Assembly (NCBI GenBank): GCA_963842925.1
Contig: CAWJIL010000003.1
Span: forward strand, 313,542 to 377,541
Direction: 5' to 3'
DNA from: an uncultured delta proteobacterium
GTDB lineage: Bacteria; Desulfobacterota; Desulfobacteria; Desulfobacterales; B30-G6
DNA length: 64,000 nt
Each line of letters opens with the position of its first letter. Positions within the stretch are counted from its first letter, which is position 1. The translations under genes and the position numbers were made by a program. The notes under the pieces were generated by a model. That model saw only the letters and a list, made by a program, of their open reading frames with translations. It ran no database searches and was not told where the DNA came from. Positions 23,329-60,258 of the stretch are shown piece by piece.

Positions 23329-24315
23329 TTAAGGTTCAATACAGGCGATCAGGGTATTCACCTCCCCAGGGGCGTCCCTGTTACCAGGGGCATTTCCCTC
23401 AACAAACCGTGCCAATAGAGATTGCGGGGCAATATCCGGCAGCAGGTAGAGTTTCATGGAAAGGGGGTCCGTGGTTTCTGCAGGATAGATATCCAGCAAC
23501 CCGGAATCGCGGAGAAGAGACACGGGCATATGCACCAGTTTTTTGCAATAATCCATCAGGTCCTGTGGTTTATCTTTCTCCGTTGTCGTATCCATTTGGA
23601 CAGCCGGGACCGTCGCCACCAAGGTCAACGTTTCAATATCCGCTACATGCTCCTGTATCAAGGTCAGCACCGAAGCAGCGGTTGTCACCAGGGGTCCTTG
23701 TACGCGGCCATGGGAAAGCATGACCCGGGACCAGGCCTTCAGACGATCTAAAATCATATACTGAAACGGATCCTCATGCTCCCCTGATTGAAGAGGTATG
23801 GTGGTCCTGTCCAAAGAACGTTCATCACCCCTGAGTTCCCGGTACAGGTTTCTTTCCATGACGTCCTGCTGCTGCATTTGATGGAAGAGCCACTGGTTAT
23901 GAGCATCAAATTCCTGGGCCATCTGAAGAAAGATGCGCGCCCGGAGAAGGCTTTCCTGCGGCGTCGCATCAGGGGAAACCGGCCGTCCGGCTGCCCGGAT
24001 GTCCTGAGTTATCTGCGAAACCGATGACGACTCAAAAAACGGAACCCTGTCCTGGTAAGCCTTTAAAAAGGCGGCTGCGCCATTGCCATGGCTCCGGGCC
24101 CAACTTTCAGTTTCGGCCAGAATCTTATCCAAAGTTCGGGAAGTATCCAGGTCCGGCATCTGTACATCCAAAAAACCCTGGGCAGCCCATTGTGCCATGG
24201 GTTCCGGAATGTGTTTCACAGAGGACTGCAGAACAGTGAGGCCGCTGAAAAAACAGCGGATTGCATTGATGGTCGGTTCCATCACATAGGTATATGGAAA
24301 AAACAAAGGTTTCAT
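23329..24315 (-). CDS. Hypothetical protein (328 aa), translationally coupled to the CysK/CysRS-like fusion
   Basis: The ATG overlaps the upstream stop (ATGA, 24312-24315). I recognised no family. Confidence 0.6.
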   Translation of the reverse strand: MKPLFFPYTYVMEPTINAIRCFFSGLTVLQSSVKHIPEPMAQWAAQGFLDVQMPDLDTSRTLDKILAETESWARSHGNGAAAFLKAYQDRVPFFESSSVSQITQDIRAAGRPVSPDATPQESLLRARIFLQMAQEFDAHNQWLFHQMQQQDVMERNLYRELRGDERSLDRTTIPLQSGEHEDPFQYMILDRLKAWSRVMLSHGRVQGPLVTTAASVLTLIQEHVADIETLTLVATVPAVQMDTTTEKDKPQDLMDYCKKLVHMPVSLLRDSGLLDIYPAETTDPLSMKLYLLPDIAPQSLLARFVEGNAPGNRDAPGEVNTLIACIEP

Positions 24316-26594
24316 GAGATCTTTTCCCGGTCCCTGACCACAACACCCCGCAAGACAAGTTCTTTCCGTATTTGATCGGCAAGATCCCAGTTTCGCTGTT
24401 GTCTGGCCTGGTCACGTTTTTCTATAAGACGCCGGACGTCGGCATCCAAGATCTGTGTTTCAAATTCGAACAGGTTAAGAACCGTATCGATCTTTTTGAA
24501 GACGTCGATGATCTTGCCGGCATCCGACAGGTTAAGGGCCTCTTCCGCTATCAGCCGGTTGATCTTTTTGATCATCCTGAAAATGGATGCCAGTGCGGCT
24601 GAAATATTGAGATCGTCATCCATGGCATCTACAAAGCCGTGCCGAATGTCGTACAAAAGTTGATCCAGGTCCGGATAGAAAGGTCCATCGCGCAATTCAT
24701 GAAGTCTGGCAATACAGGAGTCCATTCTCTGGAGCGAATTTCCAGCGTTGACAAGTTTGGTCCGGGCAAATTGAACCGGTCTACGGTAATGACTCGAAAT
24801 CAGCCAGTACCGAATTTCCCTGCCCTTGAATCCCATGTCCATGAGATGCTGGATGGTCAATCCCTCTCCCTTTTCATCCATTTTCTTTCCATCCACGAGT
24901 ACCCGGTCACAATGAATCCAGAAACGTGCCAGGGGTTTTCCTGTCAAGGCTCCGGCGATAGCAATTTCATTTTCGTGGTGAGGAAAGGTCAATTCACGAC
25001 TGGCGGTATGAATGTCATAGCTGTCCCCCAGGTACTTCATAGACATGGTCGCACATTGGAGATGCCAGGAAGGACGCACGTTTCCCCAGTCGGTTTTAAC
25101 GTAGATCCCCCTTTTGAGTTCGGATAATTTGGATCGTTTCAGAAGCGTAAAATCCCGGGGATTATCCTTTTCGTATTCATCAAGATCCACCGTGGCCCCT
25201 ATCCGAATCTTGTCGATATCGACCCCGGACAAACGACCGTACTCCTTGAAACGCGAAATATCGAAATAGATCGAGCGCAGTTTTTCATAGGCCACACCCT
25301 TTCTGACCAGTTTCTCGGAAATCGATACCATGTCACCGGTGTGGTCGCTGGCCCTGGGGTATTTTTCGGCAGGTTTGATACCCAGCTGTTTCAAGTCATT
25401 TTTAAATTCATGAATATGCCGGCGGGTAAAATCGGATAGCTCCATACCGGCTTTTTCCGACCCCTCGATGGTTTTGTCATCCAAGTCGGTGATATTCATA
25501 ATGTGCGTCACATCATAACCGCGATAGTCGAGGTACCGTCTGAGCAGATCGGAAAAAACAAACCGGCGGCACTCGGCAAGATGAATTCTGGCATGCGCCG
25601 TCAATCCGCAGGAATACATGGTAACCTTGCCCGGCACCAGTGGTTCGAAAAGTTCCTTTTTGCGGGTCATGGTGTTAAACAGCTTCAGTTCCACCTTGTC
25701 CCTGATGGTGAAAAGCGGTGTGCTCAGATAACGTTCACCACCGTCCGGCAATATGACCACCAGGGTTCCTTCGGTCATGTTGCCGGCTTCCTCCAGAGCG
25801 ACGGCCATGGCTGCACCACTGCTCATACCCACAAAAAGACCTTCTTCCAGTGCAAGGCGTCTTGCCATCTCAAAAGCAACTTCGTCTTCGATATTGATTT
25901 TTCTGTCCAGACGGTTTTTATCGAATATTTCGGGTCGATAGGCCTCTTTCATATTTTTCAGGCCTTGAATTTTATGACCCAGATAGGGTTCGACGCCAAT
26001 AATCTCGATGCCGGGGTCATATGCTTTCATCCTGCGTGAGATACCCATAGCCGTGCCACTGGTTCCCAGTGTAACGATCACCTTGTCCACGTGCCCGTCT
26101 GTTTGATCCCATATTTCAGGTGCAGTGCCATCGTAGTGGGCCTGCCAGTTGGCATCATTATTGAACTGGTCCGTCATAAAATAGACCTGTGGATTTTCAC
26201 GCACCAGACGATACGCTTCCTCGATGGCGCCATCGGTCCCCAAATGACCGGGTGTCAGCAAAATTTCCGCACCCCTTGCCTTGAGAATCTTCCGCCGCTC
26301 CCCGCTGACGGATTCCGACATGGCCAAAAGGAGCCGGTAGCCCTTGACCGAACAAACCAGTGCAAGGCCAATACCTGTATTCCCGCTGGTGGCTTCGATG
26401 ACGGTCTTCTCCCGTGTGAGTTCTCCGGAGGCTTCCCCGTTTTCAATCATTCTCAATGCGGGTCGATCCTTGATGGACCCGCCGGGATTGAAATATTCCA
26501 GCTTGGCCAGGATCTTGACCCTGGGATTGGAATTTAGGGACCGGATTTCCACCATGGGGGTGTTACCGATACTGTCTAAAATCGATCTCTTCAT
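24312..26594 (-). CDS. Fusion protein: cysteine synthase (CysK/CysM, PLP) + cysteinyl-tRNA synthetase-like domain with degenerate HIGH/KMSKS
   Basis: aa 1-300 match the CysK/CysM pattern (GGSIKDR with Lys42, SGNTGIG, GTSGT). aa 303-760 are collinear with CysRS (LFNTMTRKKELF, MYSCG, NITDLDDK, WHLQC, FPHHENEIA). However, HIGH is HLAE (25572-25583) and KMSKS is KMDEK (24870-24884). Confidence 0.9.
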   Translation of the reverse strand: MKRSILDSIGNTPMVEIRSLNSNPRVKILAKLEYFNPGGSIKDRPALRMIENGEASGELTREKTVIEATSGNTGIGLALVCSVKGYRLLLAMSESVSGERRKILKARGAEILLTPGHLGTDGAIEEAYRLVRENPQVYFMTDQFNNDANWQAHYDGTAPEIWDQTDGHVDKVIVTLGTSGTAMGISRRMKAYDPGIEIIGVEPYLGHKIQGLKNMKEAYRPEIFDKNRLDRKINIEDEVAFEMARRLALEEGLFVGMSSGAAMAVALEEAGNMTEGTLVVILPDGGERYLSTPLFTIRDKVELKLFNTMTRKKELFEPLVPGKVTMYSCGLTAHARIHLAECRRFVFSDLLRRYLDYRGYDVTHIMNITDLDDKTIEGSEKAGMELSDFTRRHIHEFKNDLKQLGIKPAEKYPRASDHTGDMVSISEKLVRKGVAYEKLRSIYFDISRFKEYGRLSGVDIDKIRIGATVDLDEYEKDNPRDFTLLKRSKLSELKRGIYVKTDWGNVRPSWHLQCATMSMKYLGDSYDIHTASRELTFPHHENEIAIAGALTGKPLARFWIHCDRVLVDGKKMDEKGEGLTIQHLMDMGFKGREIRYWLISSHYRRPVQFARTKLVNAGNSLQRMDSCIARLHELRDGPFYPDLDQLLYDIRHGFVDAMDDDLNISAALASIFRMIKKINRLIAEEALNLSDAGKIIDVFKKIDTVLNLFEFETQILDADVRRLIEKRDQARQQRNWDLADQIRKELVLRGVVVRDREKIS

Positions 26595-57278: not shown

Positions 57279-57744
57279 ATCAATACAATTTATACAGGAT
57301 TTTCCCGATGTCAATTCGAAGCATCCGGTTGTTTTATTGATTCCACCATCCTTTTGTGATACCGAATCGGAGCCTTGATTTGATTTGAACGTTTTTCAAG
57401 TTCGCCCTGGAAGGATTTTAGATTTTGGATATTTTAATCGACATCTTAACCCCAGCGTTGCAAAAGCCGGAGAGATTCAGAGCCAAGGCGTCTGAGGGTG
57501 AAGTCGTAGTTTTTTACTTCGAACCCTCAGCAACGCAGGATCTGAAATTCTCCGGCTTTCCCGTAGGGTACAACAACATGGCAAAATAGACACCATTCTT
57601 AAAATTCACCTGGGAGAAAATCCAGGACATGGCGCTATCGCTACGATATTGCATATAATAACAACTCATTATATATACTTTGCCATGTTGTTTATGCAAC
57701 AATGGGGTTAATATGCCCGGAGAAGGTTTAACCAAGGAGGACCG

Positions 57745-58029
57745 ATGTCCGGTTTTCATGAAATATTGCTGGTTGCCGCCATTCTTCTGGGCATTTTATT
57801 CCTACCACGCATGCTGCAAAAAAAGGGCGCACAGACATCGACCCGCCCGGCAATCGTCATCTCACGCAATCTGCGGATAGCCATTGCCGCTTCGGTGATT
57901 TACCCGATCGTGGCTGCGGCATTTTTACAGCCATGGCGTAAAGATATGATTCTTTTTCTATATGCCGGTGTGGGACCGGTGATACTGGGTTGGCTGTTTT
58001 ACTGGGTGTTTACCGGACGCAAGAAATAA
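57745..58029 (+). CDS. Small membrane protein (94 aa, 3 TM)
   Basis: Strong SD (AAGGAGG) 5 nt before the ATG, and three hydrophobic helices. Confidence 0.6.
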   Translation: MSGFHEILLVAAILLGILFLPRMLQKKGAQTSTRPAIVISRNLRIAIAASVIYPIVAAAFLQPWRKDMILFLYAGVGPVILGWLFYWVFTGRKK

Positions 58030-58264
58030 AGCGCGTATGCTGGGAAGCCAGGACGCTCGGAAGCTGGGATGCTGCTCTCTGCTTTAAGCCGTCAACCCCC
58101 CTCAAACCCTACAAACGTAGTTGCTTTGTTCATTGTGCTCTTTGGGTTTATTGTGTTGCCTAAGGTCGTCGGTATAGAGCCATCAACTTGTTTCCGTTTC
58201 ATCAACCCAATGAACCCAAGAAGCACAACAAACTCAATGAACCCTATTCCCCTTGAACCCTATT

Positions 58265-59059
58265 CTACTGCCCCACTAGTTCCGATAATATTTGTTTCCC
58301 TTTAGCACTCAATCCCAGTGTTTCCAGTTCCCGTGACAATTGATCGCGGGTCCCATTCCCGCCTGTATATCCATTCAAACGCGCCACAGCCGTGGATGAT
58401 ACGAAATCCCGGTGCTGCGGATAGATGCGCGAAAGCTCGTTTTTGAGTTGGGTATGTTGTTTCAGAATATATTTCTGATGATAATCCTCGGCCATGGTAA
58501 AGGAACGAAGCGGTAGTACTTGTGACCGAATGGTTTCGTCATCTTTCTGCTCTACAACAGTTTTGGAATCCATGGCCAGCTGACGCTGTTCATCGTTATG
58601 GTAAAAAATTGCATTCATGTATTGCCGGGACCAGTTCCGGCTGGTCGGTTGGTGGTTGTTCCAAAAAATCTCCAGCAATTGGGCATATGTAATGCGCCCT
58701 GGGTCAAAATCCACCTGTACTGTTTCCGTGTGATCACCCATTTTTCCGTAGCTGGGCCCTTCCATTTCGCCGCCGGCATATCCCACACGCGTGCGGATAA
58801 CACCCTCGATAATCCCGAACCGGGATTCGATGCCCCAGAATCACCCCATCCCGAAAGATGCGGTTTCAAAGTTGGGTGGCACGGCCTTATCCATTGGCGG
58901 CACACCTTTTTTAACGTTCATGGAAGATTCCTTTATTTTTGTTTCCTGACTGATTGCCGGTTCCATGGGTTGCGAGCAGGTCCATAAAAAAAATATCGAA
59001 CCCAGCAGAATACAAAACCATCCATTGCCTAAGCGGTCTTTTTTCTTCATTGCATTCAT
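58265..59059 (-). CDS. msrA: Peptide-methionine (S)-S-oxide reductase MsrA, selenocysteine-containing (in-frame TGA at 58841-58843), with N-terminal signal/anchor
   Basis: ORFs 58841..59059 and 58265..58786 are in the same frame. Read-through gives ...ETASFGMG-TGA-FWGIESRFG...VGYAGG...GDHTETVQVDFDP, i.e. the GCFWG active site with TGA in place of Cys (codon 73). A hairpin follows the TGA. GAAAGGAAAGG SD. Confidence 0.85.
58806..58830 (-). promoter_or_regulatory. Candidate bacterial SECIS hairpin for msrA UGA
   Basis: The mRNA reads UCG-AAUCCCG-GUU-CGGGAUU-(AU)-CGA. It starts 10 nt after the UGA and has G/U in the apical loop. Confidence 0.6.
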
Positions 59060-59151
59060 CCTTTCCTTTCAAAGTCGGAATATACTTGTTACAATGTTAT
59101 AGACTCACAATAAGCACTCTTTTGGATGGTTGTGTAAAGATTTGATAAAGA

Positions 59152-59613
59152 TTACTGCAGCACTTCCAGCACCTTTGCAGGATGATCCGCTGCCTTGACA
59201 ACTTTTGCCCAGTGTTTGCGGACCTTGCCGTCGGGACCAATCCAGACGGTCGAACGGATCACTCCCATAACCACCTTGCCATACATCTTTTTTTCCCCGA
59301 AAGCTCCGTATTTTTCCATCACCTTCTTATCCGGGTCACACAGCAGGGGAAAAGGAATGCCATGGTCGGCAATAAACTTTTGGTGAGATGCTTGGGTATC
59401 GGGCGAAACGCCCAGGATGACCGTACCCCGTTTTTGAAATTGACCATACAGGTCACGGAAGCCTGCGGCTTCCTTGGTTCACCCGGAGGTGTTGTCCTTG
59501 GGGTAAAAATAGAGTATCACATGCTTGCCTTTAAAATCCCTGAGTGAAACCTTTTTACCGTCTGCATCCGGCAACGTGAATGCCGGTGCTGCTTTGCCTT
59601 CTCGAATTGCCAT
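59152..59613 (-). CDS. bcp: Bcp/PrxQ-type peroxiredoxin, selenocysteine-containing (in-frame TGA at 59479-59481)
   Basis: ATG 59613 with AGGAGG 5 nt upstream. The 153 codons are collinear with Bcp. The sequence is [56 protein letters not shown]...GVSPD...FPLLCDPDKKV...RSTVWIGPDGKV. The TGA is at the peroxidatic Cys position (FYPKxxTPGC). Confidence 0.87.
59457..59473 (-). promoter_or_regulatory. Candidate SECIS hairpin for bcp UGA
   Basis: The mRNA reads GGAAGCC-GCA-GGCUUCC, a perfect 7-bp stem starting 6 nt after the UGA. A second small hairpin, UGACC-UGUAU-GGUCA, lies further 3'. Confidence 0.5.
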
Positions 59614-59895
59614 TGAATCCTCCTGTGTTTGTCAAATGTGAAAAAGAGACTTTTTTACTCATACGCCTATATGTCTATTTCGTCAAGAAAGTCCCCTGTA
59701 GAGGGGCATTATACAATAAAGTCATTGATCACCTGATGGAAAGATTTGTAAAAACATGTTATATAGAAAGTACTCCACATACTATAATGCATGATCGATT
59801 GTTGAACAATTTAGAGTTGAATAAATAAGCCTTGATAATCGAGACGCTGAAAAGGAATAACAGATCAATAAACTACTGTGGTAATAGGATACAAA

Positions 59896-60258
59896 ATGGT
59901 TGATCTTCGTAGTAAGAAAAAAATAGTCAAAAAAGAAAAAAGAAAAGACCCCAGGCTTGAATTGCATTGTAATGCAAGTGTTCTTGGCATTGACGGCATT
60001 CAGAAAATTACAGATATTAGTTTGGGCGGTATTTTTATAGAAACGCTTGTATTGAATAGTATAAAAGTCGGGCAAGTTATAACGATCAATATCAAGCTTC
60101 CGACTGAAAAAAACACCATAAGATTCAAAACCAAAGTGGTTTGCAAGACAAATCGAGGCATAGGGTGTCAATTCATGTCTTTAGATGATCAGAAAAAGGA
60201 AGCGATATGTCTATGCTTTGAAATGTTTAGAGACACACTCCCAGCAGGATGCAGGTAA
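59896..60258 (+). CDS. PilZ domain protein (c-di-GMP binding)
   Basis: RxxxR (RKDPR) followed by D.SxxG (DISLGG) at PilZ spacing. Lies in an AT-rich segment. The start is uncertain (GTG 59878 or ATG 59896). Confidence 0.7.
   Translation: MVDLRSKKKIVKKEKRKDPRLELHCNASVLGIDGIQKITDISLGGIFIETLVLNSIKVGQVITINIKLPTEKNTIRFKTKVVCKTNRGIGCQFMSLDDQKKEAICLCFEMFRDTLPAGCR

Follow-up and report, generated by a model that had tools for sequence, protein, structure and literature searches.

A selenocysteine-type MsrA gene split by its UGA codon in an uncultured delta proteobacterium, with a predicted export signal and a conserved candidate start inside the gene

The window analyzed here is a stretch of 64,000 nucleotides (nt) of contig CAWJIL010000003.1 from an uncultured delta proteobacterium, and the gene in question is a methionine sulfoxide reductase A gene of the selenocysteine (Sec) type, referred to below as Sec-MsrA. 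The list of open reading frames (ORFs) and their translations shows two minus-strand ORFs at this locus, 58841..59059 (72 amino acids, ATG start) and 58265..58786 (173 amino acids, GTG start), which lie in one frame of 264 codons. The sole internal stop between 58265 and 59059 is codon 73, a TGA at 58841-58843. The translation around this stop reads ...NFETASFGMG-stop-FWGIESRFGIIEGV..., and the one-frame translation of the whole interval reads ...PPNFETASFGMG-stop-FWGIESRFGIIEGVIRTRVGYAGG...GDHTETVQVDFDP.... The initial annotation had described two same-frame ORFs parted only by this TGA and a canonical MsrA motif with UGA at the catalytic cysteine (Cys), and both descriptions hold: the two ORFs are one Sec-MsrA gene, mis-split by the ORF caller. 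A start at the GTG at 58786 is rejected, as its product would be without the active site. The features of the gene are the following.

58265..59059, minus strand: the full msrA gene in its long form, 264 codons including Sec73, with the stop codon TAG at 58265-58267
59060..59070, minus strand: the purine-rich upstream Shine-Dalgarno (SD) region GAAAGGAAAGG, placed before both upstream ATGs, with an anti-SD duplex of -5.6 kcal/mol
59048-59050, minus strand: a second ATG, Met4, the start that is kept in relatives (the N termini of the related loci L001, L002, and L081 align from Met4)
58976..59059, minus strand: the predicted signal-peptide part, codons 1-28, with KKKDR, WFCILLGSIFFLW, and LWT-C; codons 25-28 occupy 58976-58987 and end in Cys28
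58929..58933, minus strand: an internal SD-like AAGGA, 7 nt upstream of Met47
58919..58921, minus strand: an internal in-frame ATG, Met47, a candidate second start that would give a signal-less isoform of 218 residues with Sec at position 27
58841..58843, minus strand: the Sec codon UGA, codon 73, the catalytic residue of GUFWG; TGA in 61 and TGT in 2 of 63 related loci
58806..58830, minus strand: the putative selenocysteine insertion sequence (SECIS) hairpin UCGAAUCCCG-GUU-CGGGAU(UA)UCGA, 20 nt from the UGA to the apical loop, -10.0 kcal/mol
58445..58861, minus strand: the PMSR catalytic domain, residues 67-205, from the Pfam PF01625 match (8.7e-42) and the alignment with PDB structures
58268..58444, minus strand: the C-terminal helical domain, residues about 206-264, which aligns with the Clostridium oremlandii MsrA structures 4LWJ, 4U66, and 7C13 to chain residue 194

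The TGA is a conserved part of the gene. A homologue search over 5.8 billion proteins found 4559 sequences, and nearly all of the best 120 of these are 158-195 residues long (60-71% of the query), corresponding to gene calls that start past the TGA. Three near-full-length homologues (P0005, P0082, and P0095) read GLG-W-FWG, where the TGA has evidently been translated with a code in which TGA means tryptophan (code 4). At the nucleotide level, 80 genomic loci were fetched from GTDB species representatives, of which 63 allowed the motif to be placed. Of these 63, 61 have TGA as the catalytic codon and the other two (L037 and L073) have TGT, a conservation far beyond chance. The carriers comprise Desulfobacterota (with Desulfosarcina alkanivorans and D. 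widdelii as isolates), Nitrospirota, Chloroflexota, Planctomycetota, Bacillota, Syntrophomonadaceae, and others. Among the species representatives, a metagenome-assembled genome of the Desulfobacterales (L001) is the closest, with 77% identity. Since TGA closes 13 of the 44 long ORFs of the window as an ordinary stop and interrupts none of them, the genetic code of the window is standard. The family is thus systematically mis-annotated in the databases, with entries cut after the TGA or with UGA read as tryptophan, and the basic finding at this locus is mainly a correction of the annotation.

Profile searches with the read-through protein, in which Cys was put in at codon 73, place the product in the MsrA family. 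The match with PF01625 (PMSR) covers residues 67-205 with an E value of 8.7e-42 and 143.4 bits (cut-off of 23.7), and the match with TIGR00401 (msrA) reaches 125.8 bits (cut-off of 108.1). The motifs GMG-U-FWG, GDHTET, and EDYHQKY are present in the window protein and invariant in the homologue alignment. The best matches in the PDB are the structures of the C. oremlandii enzyme CoMsrA (4LWJ, 4LWK-M, 4U66, and 7C13; E value of 6e-52), with query residues 65-251 on chain residues 8-194, so that the alignment to the MsrA family, proposed in the initial annotation, also runs through CoMsrA residues 145-194, in the helical domain. The Pfam family of this domain, PF20939 (MsrA_helical), matches the C terminus of the window protein with 20.9 bits and an E value of 3.2e-4, slightly below its cut-off of 23.7, and matches the homologue P0032 above the cut-off, with 27.1 bits. 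An AlphaFold model of the homologue P0095 has a pLDDT of 49.7, too poor for a fold comparison. No Cys follows Sec73 in the window protein, and the same holds for 43 of 64 relatives. From its sequence, the enzyme is predicted to be a 1-Sec MsrA (of the 1-Cys type) with a C-terminal helical domain similar to that of CoMsrA. Crystal structures and a dedicated Pfam domain already exist for Sec-MsrA, which makes this a known enzyme family, the closest solved structures being those of the selenoprotein MsrA of C. oremlandii with the Pfam helical domain.

Several additional sequence features were observed in the family. The motif (I)PPxD...P is nearly universal in the related loci, 12-16 residues before the ETA(S/T)F strand. 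In the window protein, it is PPMD at residues 54-57 (about 58889-58900). It is kept even in the signal-less loci L036 and L051 and lies outside the N terminus of the crystallized C. oremlandii enzyme. A subclade consisting of Nitrospirota, Dehalococcoidia, and others carries a short extra C-terminal tail with a conserved x-Cys-Pro-x, often with TGA directly behind it (L023, L024, L029, L030, L033, L043, L044, L068, L071, and L072); this tail is absent from the clade of the window gene. The Cys of this presumably flexible tail probably has a resolving role, so that these proteins would be two-residue (Sec plus Cys) enzymes. In addition, positions 144-263 of NF041383 (VPGUxxT family thioredoxin-like (seleno)protein, type 2) align with the MsrA domain with an E value of 3.4e-11. 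This match implies the existence of fusions between thioredoxin-like selenoproteins and MsrA-like domains, which could bear on the missing reductant discussed below.

The hairpin begins 10 nt past the UGA (58830..58806). The model of the bacterial SECIS element (bSECIS) has an apical loop of 3-9 nt, an upper stem of 4-16 bp, a distance of 16-37 nt between the UGA and the loop, and a minimum free energy of -7.5 kcal/mol or lower; one of the loop positions 1 and 2 is a G, in most cases with G or U next to it on the 3' side (PMC13188914). The window hairpin, with the loop GUU, an upper stem of 6-7 bp, a distance of 20 nt, and -10.0 kcal/mol, falls within all four ranges; its lower stem has 3-4 bp. 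The comparative evidence comes from an ungapped alignment of 60 distinct TGA-bearing sequences, in which columns 17-23 form a helix with columns 27-33, and from 500 shuffles of it. The helix is paired in 81.7% of cells, compared to 70.8% in shuffled alignments, and its covariation is 0.258, compared to 0.095; none of the 500 shuffles reaches either observed value. With the 3' partners slid, the covariation is 0.02-0.09, and the residual value at slide +1 arises because some sequences use the +1 register with a 6-nt loop. The loop positions G24, T25, and T26 are invariant in the 60 sequences. Three pairs of the stem covary and are composed as follows.

Stem pair 18-32: A-U 21, C-G 16, U-A 7, U-G 3, G-C 1, G-U 1, unpaired 11
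Stem pair 19-31: U-A 35, G-C 12, G-U 2, U-G 2, unpaired 9
Stem pair 23-27: G-C 37, A-U 7, unpaired 16

This covariation runs across codons. The wobble base of a Glu/Asp codon and the first base of a Ser/Ala codon pair with the first two bases of the codon for the residue after Phe-Gly. Because its codon pairs with the Glu/Asp-Ser/Ala codons, this residue changes together with them and may be Ile, Met, Ser, Leu, Gln, Ala, or Val. The locus thus shows a SECIS inside a coding region that constrains the protein sequence. Both Cys homologues (L037 and L073) are without the hairpin, the outcome of a comparison with Cys orthologs that the initial annotation had suggested. On its pattern and its covariation, the hairpin is a predicted bacterial SECIS element, in agreement with the earlier description of a SECIS hairpin 10 nt past the UGA with G/U in its loop. 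An Rfam scan of 57500-60200 gave no bacterial SECIS family and one chance miRNA match only.

The N-terminal segment MNAMKKKDRLGNGWFCILLGSIFFLWTCSQP is present as described earlier. The window protein begins with MNAM-KKKDR-LGNG-WFCILLGSIFFLW-TC-SQP... and has 72 residues before Sec. It shows both a basic n-region and a hydrophobic h-region within the range of 7-22 residues known for lipoprotein signals; the h-region, WFCILLGSIFFLW, is a 13-residue hydrophobic core whose best 12-residue Kyte-Doolittle mean is 2.43. A net charge of +3 before the core and a slightly negative charge after it predict an N-in/C-out topology. Behind the signal follow a polar linker, the conserved segment (I)PPxD...P...ETA(S/T)F, and GUFWG. 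A census of the 63 loci, which counted segments with a 12-residue Kyte-Doolittle mean of at least 1.8 after a start codon and basic residues, shows a hydrophobic N-terminal segment after basic residues in 53 of them. Roughly half of the loci end this segment in lipobox-like motifs (LMGC, IVGC, LGAC, LLAC, LLGC, LVGC, and others), some resemble signal peptidase I (SPase I) substrates (...AVNA-Q in L017), and five contain twin-arginine motifs (for example, L025 and L026, both with NRRSFMKLL, L038, and L079). The window N terminus contains no RR and thus does not show the twin-arginine translocation (Tat) motif S/T-R-R-x-F-L-K. About six loci have no signal segment: L036 from Desulforamulus aeronauticus, L051, L053, L066, L074, and the apparently damaged L006.

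The N-terminal segment is translated and under selection, as judged from the distribution of substitutions. Over the first 75 codons, the window gene differs from L081 at 11, 10, and 24 sites by codon position, that is, mainly at third positions, as with other relatives. Together, the basic stretch, the 13-residue core, LWTC, and the signals in 53 of 63 relatives bear out the initial annotation in its claim of an N-terminal signal peptide or anchor, and the long product is probably exported and lipid-anchored. The same annotation considered an exported Sec enzyme unusual given cytoplasmic Sec insertion, a view that did not stand. Every exported protein is made in the cytoplasm, so export and Sec insertion do not conflict. 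The periplasmic formate dehydrogenase FdnG and the periplasmic [NiFeSe] hydrogenase are exported selenoproteins. An MtrB/PioB outer-membrane selenoprotein and a cytochrome c selenoprotein have also been predicted (PMC9312934). The predicted exported sub-group of Sec-MsrA is large and apparently undescribed: the literature searched mentions no signal peptide, lipoprotein, periplasmic location, or second start for Sec-MsrA, though an earlier remark is possible. With export signals in most close relatives, the cytoplasmic C. oremlandii enzyme may be the exception in its family.

These features suggest the following sequence of events, in a host that would be a Desulfobacterales-like organism. The hairpin, with its loop GUU 20 nt past UGA73, would act as a SECIS and recruit SelB with Sec-tRNASec, leading to insertion of Sec at position 73. 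The long product would then be exported by means of a Sec-translocase-type signal peptide ending in LWT-C and be tethered in the periplasm or on the outward-facing side of the cytoplasmic membrane, either by a lipidated Cys28 or by an uncleaved anchor in N-in/C-out orientation, with the catalytic domain carried on a linker of about 35 residues. There, Sec73 would attack Met-S-sulfoxide in envelope proteins and become a selenenic acid. Because the mature protein is without any Cys, regeneration would need an external reductant. An exported, tethered 1-Sec MsrA whose UGA73 is decoded through a SECIS is, taken as a whole, the likely interpretation of the locus, and we hold it with fair confidence.

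A number of observations weigh against this interpretation. The single-sequence folding of the hairpin is not significant, with z scores of -1.3 (25-mer) and +1.1 (71-nt segment); since these values are unremarkable, the significance of the hairpin is taken from the comparative data. RNAalifold prefers a different helix, in which the UGA is paired with invariant codons; this helix shows no covariation and was set aside. The case for export and lipidation is built from hydrophobicity, motif rules, and conservation. The canonical lipobox is [LVI][ASTVI][GAS]C, and LWTC departs from it with Trp at -2 and Thr at -1. The conserved internal SD and ATG mean that much or all of the protein may be made without the signal. 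No selA, selB, selD, or tRNA-Sec gene was found in the 64-kb window, either by a family scan of its 40 larger ORFs or by ARAGORN, so the Sec machinery is only inferred. Finally, clustering of the flanking ORFs and a Pfam census of 117 neighbors across the 63 loci gave no conserved partner gene and no thioredoxin-like, CcdA, or DsbD gene. An exported, single-Sec, Cys-free enzyme therefore poses the question of how strict anaerobes without such a linked gene would reduce a selenenic acid or selenenylsulfide beyond their cytoplasm.

The internal start site leads to the best-surviving alternative, which extends the proposal of an exported enzyme: initiation at Met47 would add a signal-less cytoplasmic Sec-MsrA beside the exported form. 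A Met is present in the otherwise variable linker of nearly every homologue; in 52 of 64 loci, an in-frame ATG lies 18-40 codons ahead of the Sec codon. For these linker ATGs, the median energy of the anti-SD duplex is -7.9 kcal/mol. A value of -7 kcal/mol or lower is reached by 54% of them, compared to 3.6% of in-frame ATGs inside the catalytic domain and 8.9% of the remaining linker codons (Mann-Whitney test, p about 1e-14 against both classes). Where a signal is encoded, the internal sites match the upstream starts in strength (medians of -8.7 and -6.25). In 43 of 52 loci, the 40-nt stretch that spans the internal ATG folds less stably than the remainder of the gene (Wilcoxon p = 2e-6), and the window gene shows the same difference with -2.1 compared to -6.7 kcal/mol. 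The residue pairs that encode the internal SD vary (KE, EE, EG, TEA, KKG, and others), as does the distance from the Met to PPxD (3 to 20 residues), which points to selection on a nucleotide signal and not on a structural Met. In addition, the signal-less loci L036, L051, and L066 start at the Met equivalent to Met47, and E. coli genes with internal starts, namely, speA, bamA, ivy, and yghG, provide a precedent (bioRxiv 10.1101/520783). Against a dual start, the internal SD of the window gene itself is of moderate strength (AAGGA, -5.6), the loci are phylogenetically non-independent, and purine-rich linkers favor SD-like strings and open structure by themselves. The internal SD and ATG may also be a fossil of an ancestral start or an SD-like pause site. 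The most economical reading that the sequence suggests is a second initiation site giving a cytoplasmic isoform, and for the window gene such a dual start is quite possible, if somewhat short of an even chance.

Extended to the whole clade, this leads to a broader proposal, possible but held tentatively: the widespread 1-Sec MsrA genes of anaerobes, which the GTDB species representatives place in six phyla or more, would be two-in-one genes for an exported, often lipid-anchored, Cys-free enzyme and a cytoplasmic copy. If true, this would be a case of conserved bacterial dual targeting by alternative initiation, parallel to that of the mammalian enzyme. Mammalian MsrA is targeted by alternative initiation. 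The conserved internal ribosome-binding site is a testable, phylogenetically broad candidate for bacterial dual localization by this route.

A second alternative concerns the fate of the exported form, which might not be a lipoprotein: LWTC would then be no functional lipobox, and the protein would keep an uncleaved signal anchor or be cleaved by SPase I. The Thr at -1 and Trp at -2, outside the usual pattern, are consistent with this, as are the loci L008, L010, and L017, which have SPase-I-like sites or are without the Cys. The closest relatives argue for lipidation, since they keep the Cys at the end of the h-region, as LWTC in L081 (84% identical), LWAC in L001, VWAC in L002, and the canonical LMGC, IVGC, LGAC, or LLAC in L003-L007. 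An h-region of only about 13 residues is also short for a membrane anchor. We therefore regard an exported non-lipoprotein as unlikely.

Still less probable is a purely cytoplasmic enzyme that starts at Met47 (or Met32 or Met56) alone and whose hydrophobic stretch is never translated, a reading that we consider very unlikely. The internal ribosome-binding site and ATG are strong and conserved, and the characterized CoMsrA is cytoplasmic and recycled by glutaredoxin (PMC4333827). However, 53 of 63 loci from different phyla have a stop-free in-frame extension with an ATG, basic residues, a hydrophobic core, and often a lipobox or RR, which untranslated DNA could not produce, and the upstream region shows both the third-position bias of its substitutions and its own SD. 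The last alternative, a broken gene or sequencing error, or a UGA read as Trp or Gly by an alternative code, with two real products or no Sec, draws on the splitting or truncation of the gene by callers and on the database entries with W, and is hardly credible: 61 of 63 loci keep the TGA, with a covarying SECIS immediately behind it, the code of the window is standard, with TGA terminating 13 of 44 ORFs, and Trp or Gly as the catalytic nucleophile would inactivate MsrA, so that pseudogene, sequencing error, and reassigned codon are all rejected.

The upstream neighbor of the preferred exported Sec-MsrA is a second redox gene with an in-frame TGA, split into two ORFs by the caller as well.

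59152..59613, minus strand: a Bcp/PrxQ-type peroxiredoxin gene (bcp) with TGA at 59479-59481 at the position of the peroxidatic Cys; AhpC-TSA match with 3.3e-43
59457-59473, minus strand: a hairpin in bcp, GGAAGCC-GCA-GGCUUCC, with 7 bp and the loop GCA, 5 nt past the UGA; z = -2.3 in a 60-nt stretch

At the peroxidatic Cys, bcp reads PKDNTSG-U-T, which fits the PxxxTxxU pattern of the known peroxiredoxin selenoprotein family (PMC9312934). The spacing of 12 nt from its UGA to the loop is below the 16-37 nt of the consensus model. The codon is TGA in 5 of 82 sequences, namely, the window gene and four of its metagenomic relatives, of which three are the closest (88, 78, and 75% identity) and the fourth is distant; the other 77 have a Cys codon. 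As predicted from its sequence, this second TGA-bearing redox gene supports a Sec-decoding host. The adjacency of bcp and msrA is not conserved (L081), and no other convincing TGA-interrupted gene was found in the window beyond these two.

Among the 117 flanking ORFs, the most frequent families are a sulfite-oxidase-like molybdenum enzyme (5), MsrB (3), and MsrA (2). A sulfite-oxidase-family molybdoenzyme (Oxidored_molyb plus Mo-co_dimer) lies near Sec-MsrA in L001, L002, L005, L007, L008, L009, and L030, in a Desulfosarcina-like clade. It is located 0.5-2 kb downstream of the msrA stop on the opposite strand, except in L030, where it lies upstream and not on the opposite strand, and it is absent near the window gene. 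Its superfamily is that of the periplasmic methionine sulfoxide reductase MsrP. In two loci, a Cys-type fusion of MsrA and MsrB, which itself has a signal peptide, lies directly upstream of Sec-MsrA (L010:1835-2908 and L019:1780-2883) and is preceded by a two-component system of a response regulator and a histidine kinase, which is also found in L052 and L053; fusion and two-component system may form an envelope oxidative-stress regulon. Downstream of the window gene and convergent with it lies a gene for a two-helix membrane protein of 94 amino acids without a family match (57745..58029, plus strand), also found in L001, L002, and L081. Just past the msrA stop are a 9-nt imperfect tandem array (58204..58244; consensus AACCCAATG, 4.6 copies; GGGTTCATT on the gene strand) and, directly after the stop codon, a duplicated GAATAGGGTTCA. 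A scan for promoters and terminators gave a number of sites not above that of shuffled sequence. Elsewhere in the window, an ORF of 760 amino acids (24312..26594, minus strand) joins a PLP-dependent PALP (cysteine-synthase-like) domain at residues 6-284 to a complete cysteinyl-tRNA synthetase (tRNA-synt_1e, DALR_2, and CysS_C), an uncommon fusion.

Among known systems, CoMsrA from C. (Alkaliphilus) oremlandii OhILAs is the closest to the window protein. It is an enzyme of the 1-Cys type that has Sec16 but otherwise no Cys and exceeds its Cys mutant 20-fold in activity; it is reduced by glutaredoxin but not by thioredoxin, and its C-terminal helical domain is essential for the active site (PMC4333827, PMC4479559). 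The window protein resembles it in GUFWG with Sec, in the lack of a resolving Cys, and in the combination of PMSR and helical domains. In contrast, CoMsrA is a cytoplasmic protein of 209 residues with 15 residues before Sec16 and no signal peptide, whereas the window protein has about 57 additional N-terminal residues, comprising the signal, the linker, and the PPxD motif, together with the internal SD and ATG. Sec-MsrA has been recorded in surveys of Deltaproteobacteria since 2006-2007, in Syntrophobacter fumaroxidans and in the delta-1 symbiont of Olavius (PMC1794560, PMC1976440), and a 2026 review gives its motif as GUFWG/H. The survey proteins belong to the same family as the window gene, with the surveys listing the family only (PMC1794560, PMC1976440, PMC13188914).

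Extracytoplasmic repair of methionine sulfoxide is also carried out by enzymes of other types. The MsrAB2 protein of Streptococcus pneumoniae with CcdA-Etrx is an extracytoplasmic Msr system of the Cys type, and MsrPQ and PilB have likewise been named as extracytoplasmic Msr systems (PMC6316033). Neisseria PilB/MsrAB, MsrAB2, and MsrPQ share with the window protein an exported or anchored enzyme that repairs methionine sulfoxide beyond the cytoplasm, which for the window protein is a prediction. They differ in using Cys or molybdenum with a fused or neighboring thioredoxin-like donor or MsrQ, compared to Sec, no Cys, and no linked donor in the window. Exported metalloselenoenzymes leave the cytoplasm by the Tat route after cofactor loading; the window protein instead carries a Sec-translocase-type, lipoprotein-like signal. 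With respect to the internal start, speA, bamA, ivy, and yghG of E. coli resemble the window gene in having an in-frame SD and ATG just past the signal and a predicted cytoplasmic isoform (bioRxiv 10.1101/520783). The E. coli starts were mapped by retapamulin profiling and are mostly poorly conserved, in contrast to the site in the window, which is based on sequence and conserved in several phyla.

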